From Octopus sinensis (lineage: Eukaryota), in assembly GCF_006345805.1 (NCBI RefSeq), contig NC_043005.1, positions 74,028,001 to 74,092,000 on the forward strand: a DNA stretch of 64,000 bases, in the 5' to 3' direction. This document shows, in pieces, positions 315 to 63,968 of this stretch. A program made the translations under genes and the position numbers. Every line of letters starts with the position of its first letter. The stretch's first letter is position 1. The notes under the pieces are model-generated. The model did no database searches, was not told where the DNA came from, and saw only the letters and a list, made by a program, of their open reading frames with translations.

Positions 315-437
315 CTGTTGTTGTTCTCTGTGTAGTGGATTTAGGGACAAGACTTGTTGATGTAGTTGTTTCTAAAAGATGAGTTGTAGCAGTGGGTGTT
401 GTAACAGATGGAGTGGTCACTATAGTTGTTGTACTTG
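315..437 (-). CDS. Thr-rich linker exon ([26 protein letters not shown]...); an in-frame alternative acceptor would extend it to 446
   Basis: 123 nt, phase 1-1, gtataa donor; paralog of 9508-9630. Confidence 0.78.
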
Positions 438-520
438 CTGACGTCACTATTTACATAAAGAAAGGGAAAACATTGTGTAATTAATATAAAAATTAAATTT
501 ATTATCACAAATATCAACTA

Positions 521-563
<43 letters not shown>

Positions 564-63054: not shown

Positions 63055-63130
<76 letters not shown>

Positions 63131-63968
63131 GCACATATAGATCAACAAAATTCTAAGTAGTGTTTTGTTGAATCCCTTTGCATTCTGCTTTTAAATCCAG
63201 CCAATGTCAACTTTTATTCTTCCTGACAAACATAAGACGAACACCAGACAACGAAATACCTAAATATCTGAGATTAGTGGTTAATAATACGATTATAATT
63301 TACAGTTACATGACAATTTGGTTAGTTTGATCTCTGGTCATTATATGTCATCAGAAATAAGACACAACACGAAATGAAAATCCGAGATCAGTCTGATTGA
63401 AATGTCTTGTATGAGTAAAACGGTAAAAATAGATCATTTCAAGACAAGAATAATAGTATATGTATATATTTATCATGTGTATCCCCAGTTAGAAGTCAAT
63501 ATCACATAATTCTAGTTTCAAATTTTGGCAGCAATTTTAGTGAAGGAGAAAGACAATTACATTGGTACTAGTGGTCAACTGGTACTTATTCTAATGACTC
63601 TAAAATGATGAAAAGCAAAGTCAATCTTGACGGAATTTGAATTCAAAATCTAATGAACCAGAAGAAATGCCACAAAGCATTTTGTCCAACGGAGGACCAA
63701 ATCCACCAGCTCAATGCCTTTTAATATAATATAACATTAGAAGTTAATAATATAAGTTTTATCCGTACTAAAGAGAGATGTTTACGTTCATTGATATTAA
63801 AATTTGAAAACAGCATTAACTCACTTGTACAGTGTGGAGGTTTTCTAATACAAGCACCATTCTGGAATGTATATCCTTCATTACAACTACAGACCTTGTT
63901 ACATTCCAAAGATACAGAACAGTCACTGTCACAAGTTTCCAAGTCACAGTAACACTTGCTAGGACATT
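315..63968 (-). CDS. Giant secreted mucin-like glycoprotein, partial gene span (24 exons, ~5,890 aa; PTS, TIL/VWC and discoidin-like modules), continuing beyond both window ends
   Basis: 24 exons bounded by AG/GT join with consistent phases: 19 are symmetric phase 1-1, and the Cys-rich cluster runs 1-0, 0-1, 1-0, 0-0, 0-1. Thr/Ser/Pro tandem repeats plus TIL and VWC Cys patterns match the gel-forming mucin/VWF/hemocytin family. No VWD domain, start or stop codon is seen in the window. Confidence 0.88.
1456..1745 (+). mobile_element. tRNA(Arg-like)-headed SINE family D
   Basis: GGAGGCGCAATGGCCCAGTGGTTAGAGCAGCGGACTCG...GGTTTCGATTCCC. Copies at 14925-15222 and 24494-24780. Related family E at 14665-14912(+), 1785-2085(-), 8965-9275(-), 37625-37905(-), 40215-40430(-). 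Confidence 0.8.
2095..2474. repeat. (ATGT/ATGC)n microsatellite
   Basis: Seen directly. Similar simple repeats at 524-561, 4960-5205, 13965-14135, 47017-47062, 57770-57912, 59386-59548, 63058-63131. Confidence 0.95.
4472..4918 (-). CDS. Exon: discoidin/F5-8C-like module, copy 5
   Basis: 447 nt, phase 1-1, ttcttttcag acceptor, gtaag donor. Confidence 0.9.
5500..5604 (-). CDS. Thr-rich linker exon ([19 protein letters not shown]...)
   Basis: 105 nt, phase 1-1, gtaaat donor. Confidence 0.8.
6618..6659 (-). CDS. Micro-exon ([14 protein letters not shown])
   Basis: 42 nt, phase 1-1, tttcttag acceptor, gtaagg donor. Confidence 0.8.
8357..8803 (-). CDS. Exon: discoidin/F5-8C-like module, copy 4
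   Basis: 447 nt, phase 1-1; 8 nt differences from copy 3 by manual alignment. Confidence 0.9.
9508..9630 (-). CDS. Thr-rich linker exon ([19 protein letters not shown]...)
   Basis: 123 nt, phase 1-1; paralog of 5500-5604 and 315-437. Confidence 0.8.
11341..11382 (-). CDS. Micro-exon ([14 protein letters not shown])
   Basis: 42 nt, phase 1-1; paralog of 6618-6659. Confidence 0.8.
11869..12068. mobile_element. Mariner-like MITE
   Basis: TIRs gggtgctgaaaagttcctggcttt / aaagccgggaacttttcagcaccc. Relatives at 14335-14460 and 17937-18374. Confidence 0.8.
13046..13492 (-). CDS. Exon: discoidin/F5-8C-like module, copy 3
   Basis: 447 nt, phase 1-1, tttttcag acceptor, gtaag donor. Confidence 0.9.
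15488..15818 (-). CDS. Exon: VWC domain ([15 protein letters not shown]...KCCPYCP) plus Thr-rich linker
   Basis: ccctttcag acceptor, gtaggt donor, 331 nt, phase 0-1; GE-x-W and CCPxC are VWC hallmarks. Confidence 0.87.
17624..17725 (-). CDS. Exon: VWC-like C-terminal CCxC and start of the next VWC ([34 protein letters not shown])
   Basis: ttttcacag acceptor, gttcgt donor, 102 nt, phase 0-0. Confidence 0.78.
18123..18351. mobile_element. piggyBac-type (TTAA) MITE nested inside a mariner-like MITE
   Basis: TTAA-CCCTTTCGTTAC...GTAACGAAAGGG-TTAA. Copies at 5854-6083 and 19060-19274. Confidence 0.85.
18645..18960 (+). mobile_element. Restriction-like endonuclease (R4/Dong/NeSL-type) LINE C-terminal fragment
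   Basis: [40 protein letters not shown] resembles RLE C-termini. Confidence 0.65.
19442..19709 (-). CDS. Exon: 10-Cys TIL plus start of a VWC-like module, with an apparent 1-nt deletion at 19541-19544
   Basis: [38 protein letters not shown], then a shifted frame [33 protein letters not shown]. Length is 268 nt where 269 is needed for phase 1-0. Confidence 0.8.
20976..21081 (-). CDS. Exon: remainder of E module ([35 protein letters not shown])
   Basis: 106 nt, phase 0-1, ttttag acceptor, gtatgt donor; phases fit both neighbours. Confidence 0.8.
21140..21362. mobile_element. DNA-transposon terminus with internal inverted duplication
   Basis: ggaaggtgtttataagccatttaaaa occurs in both orientations; the same terminus (ggagatgtacttgcatagc...) recurs at 25766-25960. 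Confidence 0.6.
22285..22415 (+). mobile_element. RTE/BovB-like LINE 3' terminus
   Basis: Zn-finger-like end [23 protein letters not shown] followed by a CAT-rich tail. Confidence 0.6.
22832..23397 (+). mobile_element. Internally deleted mariner DNA transposon
   Basis: TIRs ttgggttgtccggaaagttcgtgc / gcacgaactttccggacaacccaa, TA on both sides. Transposase remnant [29 protein letters not shown] (YSPDLAP motif) with stop codons. Confidence 0.92.
23453..23721 (-). CDS. Exon: 8-Cys TIL domain and start of E module (..[32 protein letters not shown])
   Basis: ttttcttgacag acceptor, gtaagt donor, phase 1-0; CPCYHNG is typical of the mucin/VWF TIL-E junction. Confidence 0.88.
24107..24480 (-). mobile_element. 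Degenerate non-LTR (RTE-like) reverse transcriptase fragment
   Basis: Translates with frameshifts to KAFD...GVHQGSVL...[10 protein letters not shown]. Confidence 0.85.
25070..25342 (-). CDS. Exon: 10-Cys TIL-like domain plus Ser/Thr linker
   Basis: 273 nt, phase 1-1; [45 protein letters not shown], nearly the same Cys spacing as exon 63825-63968. Confidence 0.85.
26790..34937 (-). CDS. PTS mega-exon 2 (8148 nt, 2716 codons): degenerate (T)TTAAPS(A/G) and TTPSTATTT repeats
   Basis: Uninterrupted 2736-aa ORF; ttctcttctacag acceptor, gtaagc donor; phase 1-1. Confidence 0.92.
34969..35795 (-). mobile_element. Two (ATG)n-tailed RTE 3'-UTR-type repeats (34969-35340, 35507-35795)
   Basis: Shared core GGTTGGCGTTAGGAAGGGCATCCAGCTGTAGAAAC...GTTAAACGATGATG. 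Other copies at ~3400-3586(+), 16050-16275(+), 20040-20350(-), 26190-26385(+), 47810-48172(-), 53278-53690(-), 54425-54850(+). Confidence 0.8.
35797..36540 (+). mobile_element. 3' end of an RTE-clade LINE (ORF C-terminus plus 3' UTR)
   Basis: [12 protein letters not shown]...GRGRPRKTW...DRDLWK motif followed by the UTR that forms the abundant (ATG)n-tailed repeat. Confidence 0.88.
36868..36918 (-). CDS. Micro-exon linker ([17 protein letters not shown])
   Basis: tttttatag acceptor, gtttgt donor, 51 nt, phase 1-1. Confidence 0.72.
38313..38545 (+). mobile_element. tRNA-derived SINE family B with a target-site duplication (agtttaaatgctaaag)
   Basis: B-box GAGTTCAAATTC and central GCCTTTCATCCTTT.G.GGTC.ATAAATTAAGTACCAG (Meta-domain-like, from recollection). 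Copies at 1024-1257(-), 2747-2962(-), 16285-16870(+), 20666-20886(+), 37313-37525(+), 40790-40980(-), 50815-50985(-), 55615-55826(-), 63520-63718(-). Confidence 0.85.
40982..41086. repeat. (TTA)n followed by (AAT)n, a self-complementary microsatellite
   Basis: Seen directly. Confidence 0.9.
41610..46742 (-). CDS. PTS mega-exon 1 (5133 nt): ~5.8 copies of a 49-aa repeat, then 17/18-aa [18 protein letters not shown](I/V) repeats; internal frameshift patch
   Basis: ttctag acceptor, gtactg donor. ORFs 42559..46743 and 41596..42369 share a frame. Indels at ~42380-42985 sum to zero. Confidence 0.85.
46997..48841. mobile_element. TA-flanked TIR element carrying nested SINE/LINE insertions
   Basis: Perfect 23-nt inverted repeat (including the TA) taccaggtgcagcatatatattt / aaatatatatgctgcacctggta. 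Confidence 0.65.
48896..48928 (-). CDS. Micro-exon linker ([11 protein letters not shown])
   Basis: ccatttcag acceptor, gtaaat donor, 33 nt, phase 1-1. Confidence 0.7.
50361..50774 (-). CDS. Exon: discoidin/F5-8C-like module, copy 2
   Basis: 414 nt, phase 1-1; [21 protein letters not shown]....[11 protein letters not shown]. Confidence 0.85.
51978..52055 (-). CDS. Linker exon ([26 protein letters not shown])
   Basis: tattctag acceptor, gtata donor, 78 nt, phase 1-1. Confidence 0.75.
55268..55358. repeat. Short AT-rich tandem repeat (tttaattttcaaataaaataagata-like, ~3.5 copies)
   Basis: Seen directly. Confidence 0.8.
56533..56577 (-). CDS. Micro-exon linker ([15 protein letters not shown])
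   Basis: ttttttccag acceptor, gtaagc donor, 45 nt, phase 1-1. Confidence 0.8.
56694..57104 (-). mobile_element. tRNA-derived SINE family A with CORE-like centre and (AGAGTAAA)-type tail
   Basis: Head with A-box TGGCTGTGTGG and B-box GGTTCAGTCC, then (A/C)CTTGGGCAAGTGTCTT. Copies at 7321-7737(-), 9910-10340(-), 21707-22116(-), 49663-50267(+, interrupted), and degenerate at 12390-12730, 19840-20570, 59190-59715. Confidence 0.85.
59801..60238 (-). CDS. Exon: discoidin/F5-8C-like module, copy 1
   Basis: 438 nt, phase 1-1; [21 protein letters not shown]....VKVSILGCF. Confidence 0.85.
60930..61380 (-). mobile_element. Penelope-like element GIY-YIG endonuclease remnant
   Basis: [40 protein letters not shown] knuckle plus degenerate GIY/YIG. 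Confidence 0.7.
62284..62331 (-). CDS. Micro-exon, Thr-rich linker ([16 protein letters not shown])
   Basis: tttcag acceptor, gtaag donor, 48 nt, phase 1-1. Confidence 0.75.
63825..63968 (-). CDS. Exon: 10-Cys TIL-like domain ([47 protein letters not shown])
   Basis: ttcag acceptor, gtgagt donor, 144 nt, phase 1-1, C-x-C-x2-GY-x6-C motif. Confidence 0.85.

Follow-up and report, generated by a model that had tools for sequence, protein, structure and literature searches.

A probable giant gel-forming mucin gene of Octopus sinensis with repeated modules of predicted discoidin fold

F5_F8 (discoidin) domains are described as characteristic of lophotrochozoan mucin-like proteins, with CysD domains inserted within the F5_F8 region (Lang 2016, PMC4948705, section 15). 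The same text gives hemolectin a 3+2 plan of VWD units with the discoidins after three VWD units and credits insect proteins with at most "a very small PTS domain" (PTS, proline/threonine/serine-rich); our comparison relies on this section and the labels of Fig. S4, and octopus has 0 occurrences in the data set. According to the account of MUC2 polymerization in PMC7599080, chains are joined tail to tail by the cystine knot and head to head by Cys1088 and Cys1130, CysD1 is needed for filaments, and a Cys1130Ala mutant was part monomer, part dimer. Among mollusks, the limpet pedal-mucus protein P-vulgata_3 is reported with VWD, C8, TIL, and LDLa domains (PMC7333891), and mucin-19-like and SCO-spondin-like proteins are among those listed for octopus skin mucus (PMC11431876). 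So far, the main structural proteins of cephalopod mucus have been represented by proteome-table fragments named "mucin-19-like," "mucin-5AC-like," and "SCO-spondin-like." Here, we analyzed a 64,000-nucleotide (nt) stretch of Octopus sinensis DNA (contig NC_043005.1, positions 74,028,001 to 74,092,000; below, the window) together with its flanks. The window holds the transcribed and spliced C-terminal half of what is probably a secreted, disulfide-polymerizing gel-forming mucin of the lophotrochozoan F5/8 (hemolectin/SCO-spondin-related) kind, in which predicted divergent discoidins would act as reversible gel stickers. The analysis yields a near-complete plan for one cephalopod mucus-type protein of more than 10,000 amino acids (aa), whose repeated module is now predicted to be a discoidin and is shared with three paralogs, of which one matches peptides from skin mucus.

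Coordinates are given in window numbering, extended past both ends (contig position = 74028000 + coordinate; the genome measures 2.72 Gb). On the minus strand, 24 GT-AG exons could be chained from 63968 down to 315 with no conflict of phase, one base being allowed near 19546. Their total is 17,658 nt, or 5,886 codons, when a linker exon is taken as 5604-5500 and a base is supplied for the break at ~19546, in agreement with the more than 5,800 aa that a preliminary description, made from the letters alone, had attributed to the window; its N-to-C order was also correct, and all of the features that it named are present on this strand. The micro-exons are predictions, as are PTS1 at its two ends and PTS2 at its 5' end; they come from splice scores trained on this gene's own sites. 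The exons are as follows.

63825-63968, minus strand: TIL-like Cys-rich exon, phase 1-1 (Pfam TIL, E 0.1, weak)
62284-62331, minus strand: Thr-rich micro-exon, 48 nt (predicted)
59801-60238, minus strand: discoidin-like module, single exon, 35% identity to the 8803 copy
56533-56577, minus strand: Thr-rich micro-exon, 45 nt (predicted)
51978-52055, minus strand: Thr-rich linker exon, 78 nt (predicted)
50361-50774, minus strand: discoidin-like module, single exon, 41% identity to the 8803 copy
48896-48928, minus strand: micro-exon, 33 nt (predicted)
41610-46742, minus strand: PTS1, 1,711 codons, in 147-nt and then 57-nt tandem units
36868-36918, minus strand: micro-exon between PTS1 and PTS2, 51 nt (predicted)
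26790-34937, minus strand: PTS2, 2,716 codons, in 24/48/72-nt units; 3' end joined to 25342 in RNA-type contigs
25070-25342, minus strand: TIL-like exon with Thr/Ser linker, on the spliced contig
23453-23721, minus strand: linker, TIL (23.9 bits, cut-off 24.5), and start of an E module, on the spliced contig
20976-21081, minus strand: Cys-containing exon, 106 nt, matching an unplaced 106-letter contig stretch
19442-19709, minus strand: TIL-like and VWC-like exon, on the spliced contig; assembly one base short at ~19546
17624-17725, minus strand: end of a VWC-like module, 102 nt, matching an unplaced contig stretch
15488-15818, minus strand: VWC (27.5 bits, cut-off 27.6) and Thr-rich linker, on the spliced contig
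13046-13492, minus strand: discoidin-like module, C-terminal array copy 1, 98% identity to the 8803 copy, covered by RNA-type contigs
11341-11382, minus strand: micro-exon linker, 42 nt (predicted)
9508-9630, minus strand: Thr linker exon, 123 nt (predicted)
8357-8803, minus strand: discoidin-like module, array copy 2 (model confidence 76.8; best Z 13.1 to F5/8C domains)
6618-6659, minus strand: micro-exon linker, 42 nt (predicted)
5500-5604, minus strand: Thr linker exon, 105 nt (predicted)
4472-4918, minus strand: discoidin-like module, array copy 3, 80% identity to the 8803 copy
315-437, minus strand: Thr linker exon, 123 nt (predicted)

PTS1 comprises 5,133 nt; its frame switches internally at ~42.4-42.8 kb but is kept on balance. 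PTS2 comprises 8,148 nt free of stops and encodes 41.5% Thr, 22.8% Ala, 12.6% Ser, and 12% Pro. Together with PTS3 (~1,832 codons), which lies downstream of the window, the gene has three of the long PTS tracts that belong to gel-forming mucins in the sense of Lang 2016. Short Thr linkers alternate with the modules, which lie to either side of these long tracts; the earlier picture of PTS tracts punctuated by modules is a loose one, since no module lies within PTS1 or PTS2 or between the two. Two candidate exons were discarded, an open reading frame (ORF) at 58247-58140 that had no usable donor and a possible exon near 4407 whose phases misfit. The latter (4320-4407, minus strand) is a 29-codon open stretch preceded by another copy of the acceptor tract of the micro-exons, with a donor phase that misfits the next exon, and it sits where other repeat units carry a 42-nt linker exon.

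Splicing was examined over 9300-27180 in four runs, from four studies with three organism labels; contig depths were not used, no listed run is recorded as RNA, and the four were treated as RNA-type because their contigs lack introns. In each of them, one contig of 1,650-1,980 letters carried seven consecutive exons with the introns absent: five were placed directly (26790+, 25070-25342, 23453-23721, 19441-19709, and 15488-15818), and two, the exons starting at 21081 and 17725, were recognized in contig stretches of 106 and 101 letters that had no placement of their own but match these exons. In all four runs, the contig segments meet exactly where junctions were predicted and connect PTS2 with the TIL/VWC cluster, so that the earlier assumption of one spliced transcript holds for the part tested. 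Over the 269 genomic bases at 19441-19709, each of the four contigs carries 270 letters, and therefore the frameshift near 19546 is an assembly error; of the earlier suggestion that frameshifts fragment the annotation, this much is borne out, at least one of them being such an error. The 13492 module is covered by contigs separate from the seven-exon contig, and parts of the 4918 module are present in 20 of the 24 runs listed, from 9 studies.

The gene continues past the 3' side of the window on the same strand, with more linker exons in addition to the following features.

~74026907-74027353 (-647), minus strand: array copy 4, the sixth module
~74017481-74022976, minus strand: PTS3, ~1,832 codons, several frame switches
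~74011452-74011658 (-16342), minus strand: cystine knot exon
~74008751 (-19249, start), minus strand: last CxC exon

The knot exon scored 26.6 bits with DAN (cut-off 22), 19.3 bits with Cys_knot (under the cut-off of 24), and E 0.002 with the VWF CK domain, and it keeps CxCC, as a C-terminal cystine knot. On the other side, from the window to 141626, there are at least 25 called exons with TIL, VWC, and LDLa, none of them with a VWD. One LDLa was above the cut-off (26.2 bits), and two more are LDLa-like by eye alone. This part also contains a split discoidin-like module at 123212 (E 4e-8 to module A1) and a candidate second one at 107009, which we count as possible only (ESM Atlas 0.84 to F5/8C, a lead only; hhalign probability 0.1). 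Farther upstream, at 529.6-590.2 kb (~74.558-74.618 Mb), the strand of the knot also carries EGF repeats, TILs, C8-3, and three VWDs; the VWDs, TILs, and C8-3 exceeded the Pfam cut-offs, and the C8-1 and C8-2 exons were not called. Extension of the flanks, as proposed in the preliminary description, thus recovered a likely VWD/C8 head as well as the knot. The C8-3 exon best matched the D3 region of MUC2, MUC5AC, and MUC5B (E 3.6e-18) and aligned gap-free to 7a5o_A with Asp-Cys kept at chain positions 1067-1068. A +20 offset equates these with Asp1087/Cys1088 as numbered in PMC7599080, so that the exon has an equivalent of the D3 Cys1088 of the MUC2 mechanism.

The assembly separates this head from the exons that end at 141626. 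Runs of N lie at 141886, 352130, and 526844; 260 nt separate the first of them from the start of the TIL exon at 141626, and 2.6 kb separate the last from the end of C8-3. The C8-3 donor has phase 1, which fits the phase-1 acceptor of that TIL exon, and in two paralogs a homologous TIL exon is found 3.6 and 6.4 kb past the last VWD3 exon. Between the two halves, 39 exon queries gave 0 matches in 385 kb, whereas 600 kb of DNA from paralogs had matches at 17 places. We infer that head and tail are one gene, split by misplaced contigs (or by a very long intron); a scaffolding error is the probable cause and is flagged here for users of the assembly. The whole protein is likely to exceed 10,000 aa, with a rough lower bound of 10,200 aa from called exons, some of whose ends are approximate. 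The intervening DNA itself (74169986-74554843) consists of two gap-bounded contigs, 385 kb in total, with transposon-like ORFs and no mucin-related exon; it includes a 531-codon Asn/His/Gln-rich ORF on the plus strand (L009:7578-9170) with a signal-like hydrophobic start and no convincing Pfam match.

The five modules in the window are 137-148 aa long, and each is encoded by one symmetric phase-1 exon. All six modules, including array copy 4, have exactly two Cys, one at each end, a net negative charge, and no WxxW. Sequence methods did not recognize them as discoidins: Pfam PF00754 matched 0 of the 5 window modules, a genome-wide PF00754 search gave 20 matches with none at this locus, and a PDB sequence search with module A1 returned two chance-level matches and no discoidin. 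An AlphaFold model built from six copies had a predicted local distance difference test (pLDDT) score of 76.8, and with it Foldseek found 49 matches at E≤0.001, with factor VIII and the b domains of neuropilin at the top. In VIA, the top 18 rows had Z 12.3-13.1 and root-mean-square deviations (rmsd) of 2.4-3.1 over 122-134 residues and were mostly eukaryotic discoidin domains, the set including factor V/VIII C, neuropilin, DDR, CASPR2, discoidin I, and IFT25; the best match had Z 13.1 and rmsd 2.8 over 133 residues. CBM32-type domains followed at Z 10.3-11.7, lectin and non-lectin matches lying within about 2 Z units, and ESM Atlas scores were 0.92-0.93, the clusters that bear names including F5/8C and CBM32. 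The predicted model is a beta-sandwich with the terminal Cys present in 6 of 6 modules, and the fold predicted for the module is that of discoidin (F5/8C) domains, as its earlier description as discoidin-like anticipated. The fold is well supported by the model, yet discoidins that are not lectins head the matches, and this is no demonstration of lectin activity. A homodimer prediction for the module scored 0.00, which is not evidence either way.

The module copies were duplicated together with intron DNA. At 8299-13607, the modules at 13492 and 8803 align with flanking intron at 95% over about 620 nt, and the rest of the repeat unit aligns at ~68-73%, an interspersed repeat aside, consistent with recent duplication or gene conversion. 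Synonymous and nonsynonymous codon differences between copies ranged from 5:3 to 14:30, and a ratio of roughly 1:3 is expected in the absence of selection. The copies thus show a modest synonymous excess, which would reflect constraint on the fold and is no sign of binding.

A gene of this kind is already known in outline, and what differs here is the 3+0 VWD plan, three long PTS tracts, variable discoidin arrays invisible to Pfam, and no detectable CysD. The lophotrochozoan F5/8 mucin-like proteins share three VWD units, F5/8C-type domains, PTS, and VWC, with LDLa labeled on one Aplysia entry (section 15 and Fig. S4 labels of Lang 2016); they have CysD, however, whereas none was found here and the discoidins are below Pfam detection. 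The substitution of modules for CysD, as first described, agrees with 0 PF13330 matches in this genome and with the lack of WxxW, but the control genomes were equally silent (0 matches), so that this control is uninformative. In the literature searched, neither this gene nor arrays of divergent discoidins in mucins of cephalopods were described; F5/8 mucin-like proteins are reported for Lophotrochozoa (Lang 2016). Insect hemolectin/hemocytin shares (VWD-C8-TIL)x3 followed by discoidin domains and is a fiber-forming secretion, but its plan includes two more VWD units, and its PTS is scant or absent, in contrast to three long PTS tracts and 7-8 discoidins here. None of the 128 VWD matches in the genome falls between the head and the cystine knot, although a highly divergent VWD could escape. 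MUC2, MUC5AC, MUC5B, and MUC6 have in common with the octopus gene a D1-D2-D3 head (a probable one here) with the Cys1088 equivalent, long PTS, VWC, and a terminal cystine knot; the octopus gene differs in its N-terminal EGF repeats, LDLa, many TILs, discoidins apparently in place of CysD, the lack of a Cys1130 equivalent, and no D4 found. MUC6 is not known to have D4 or CysD either. SCO-spondin and P-vulgata_3 share three VWDs, C8, TIL, and LDLa after D3, and SCO-spondin also has the cystine knot, but here PTS dominates the length and no TSP1 repeat was seen among the scanned exons (no TSP1 family among the 9 + 39 called ORFs covered by the Pfam scan).

The architecture had been called lineage specific, a view that is weakened in that the combination is not a one-off: the same cassette occurs in Argonauta, the module occurs at three more loci of this genome, and Lang 2016 provides a precedent. 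The module query gave one protein match among 416 candidates of 266-2000 aa, Argonauta hians Ahia01_000590900 (hypothetical, partial). This orthologous piece carries the TIL/VWC cassette in unchanged order and, after it, repeats of module and Thr linker, with exons 57-80% identical and modules 60-69% identical to the octopus copies; it differs in an array of five complete modules and part of a sixth, compared with four here, and is an unannotated fragment without PTS or ends. The Pfam families given for its modules are spurious, and its residues 1-37 match an interspersed repeat on both strands (window 7571, 10174, and 56938), probably an annotation artifact. Residues 38-520 gave 0 matches among 2,295 candidates of 2289-5000 aa, and the VWD1 ORF gave no protein match, probably being swamped by its own low-complexity tail; no full-length relative was found among these size-restricted candidates.

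Of the other VWD-bearing regions of the genome, three were examined, two of them extensively and the third by way of two loci of 3 kb. Paralog a (C9:75.04-75.26 Mb, plus strand), head-to-head with this gene and about 420 kb from its head, has EGF, three VWD, and LDLa-like units and then 41 tandem module exons (40 phmmer matches and one found with A1; 75090667-75230981) in sub-blocks of near-identical copies, no long PTS ORF, and 3' TIL, TSP1-like, VWC-like, and knot-like ORFs by eye. Paralog b (C28:11.95-12.05 Mb) has EGF, three VWD, and LDLa-like units, four module and Thr-linker units (E 6e-4 to 0.014), and a single stop-free PTS ORF of 3,969 codons (12020300-12032206). Paralog c (C9:51.29 Mb, 51286223-51291298) has module and Thr-linker repeats (E 7e-6 to A1; 17.7 bits, versus a best of 5.7 in 400 shuffles) 73 kb behind VWD matches on the same strand, and their membership in one gene is putative. 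The region of paralog c contains a short N run and near-identical duplicated exons. A single-sequence fold of half of one paralog module was unusable (pLDDT 45.9). We searched the listed rows of the supplements of PMC10138644 and PMC10142993. In the skin-mucus table of PMC10138644, five Octopus vulgaris peptides of the "mucin-5AC-like" protein A0A7E6F1Y7 are identical to paralog c sequence; a sixth was not seen among the ORFs listed for the two loci, 26 of 46 places having been covered.

By analogy with MUC2, tails would dimerize via the cystine knot and heads would be linked through D3, which retains a counterpart of Cys1088 but not of Cys1130, and about 6,200 PTS residues would be O-glycosylated and swell. 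The 7-8 discoidins beside the long PTS tracts may fill the place of vertebrate CysD and could give low-affinity, multivalent contacts to glycans on neighboring chains or on microbes. The product would most likely be epithelial mucus. For the discoidins, the sole functional pointer, by analogy, is a second-hand statement in PMC4015701 that Drosophila hemolymph without the hemolectin discoidin region failed to aggregate bacteria. A broader idea, which we put forward tentatively and consider doubtful, is that octopods lost CysD and rebuilt their whole gel-forming mucin family on a Pfam-invisible discoidin as a noncovalent cross-linker or microbe trap, its valency tuned by exon duplication (from at least 4 copies between Thr linkers to 41 in tandem), as an independent solution. 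A 145-aa single-disulfide domain is easy to express, which makes the idea of discoidin for CysD in invertebrate mucins directly testable.

Several observations weigh against a polymerizing surface mucin with discoidin stickers. The discoidin fold is common to lipid-, protein-, and collagen-binding domains, and intracellular IFT25 and DOC equal or outscore the CBM32 lectins (Z 10.3-11.7). The signal peptide, also to be sought in the flanks, was not found in 590-645 kb, where the scan gave one unconvincing candidate. The TIL exon at 141626, given the inferred C8-3/TIL junction, lacks an equivalent of D3 Cys1130 at what we take to be its position in MUC2. Within 9300-27180, no contig or read joins the VWD head to the rest or PTS1 to anything, and none crosses from 15488 to 13492; the frame switches of PTS1 and PTS3 are those of the genome assembly. 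Finally, 0 of 10 probe peptides of this gene are among the rows listed in the skin-mucus table (PMC10138644), and 0 of 5 are among those listed in the ink-proteome file.

A hemocyte clot or microbe-trapping fiber like that of insect hemolectin/hemocytin, in place of surface mucus, is quite improbable: the head of three VWD units followed by discoidins resembles hemolectin in the section 15 text of Lang 2016, hemocytin makes sticky bacteria-binding fibers (as stated in PMC4015701), and the negative skin-mucus probes would fit, but about 6,200 PTS residues are far from the very small PTS that insects have at most, the C-terminal VWD pair expected from a 3+2 plan was not found, and a paralog with the same module occurs in skin mucus. 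The negative skin probes would also fit a specialized secretion with the same polymer chemistry, such as egg cement or chorion, a sucker or salivary adhesive, or a gut lining. The domain set of the pedal-mucus protein P-vulgata_3 (PMC7333891, as described there) offers a parallel for this, and several octopus paralogs could divide tissues among themselves; however, the runs holding the gene span 9 studies with records that give no tissue, and we consider such a restricted role improbable.

The two remaining alternatives concern the parts of the proposed mucin. That the VWD head and the window gene are separate, leaving a tail-only mucin that forms knot dimers without D3 polymerization, or a head on another scaffold, would accord with their distance of 385 kb in the assembly, the lack of a spanning transcript, and the many other VWD loci of the genome, some on small contigs. 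The halves, however, are on the same strand in the right order, break at complementary C8-3 and TIL ends with matching phases, and each stop 0.3-2.6 kb from a scaffold gap; no related exons lie between them, and the paralogs are continuous at this point, all of which makes separate genes very improbable. It is rather unlikely, though a more serious alternative, that exon duplication has multiplied discoidin modules serving as inert, protease-resistant spacers with no specific binding. Symmetric phase-1 exons duplicated with intron DNA, copy numbers from a few to 41 across paralogs, and drift past detection by Pfam and PDB sequence searches are what such spacers would produce. Against this, the copies keep their frame and both Cys, their synonymous:nonsynonymous differences (5:3 to 14:30) compare with an expected ~1:3, and identity to the Argonauta copies is 60-69%, which indicates constraint on the fold but does not demonstrate binding.

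Beyond the gene, long ORFs resembling LINE reverse transcriptase/endonuclease and DNA-transposon remnants were recognized by eye downstream, at ~73.88-73.99 Mb. Upstream of the mucin head, a 484-codon Ser-rich ORF on the minus strand (74675309-74676760) is probably an exon of the next gene. The 128 VWD matches in the genome include multi-VWD clusters on C2 (30.8-31.3 Mb), C3 (23.7-24.1 Mb), C28 (14.3 Mb), C30, C22, and C6, and identical VWD copies occur on the small contigs C8755 and C9304, which together make up a large VWD family.

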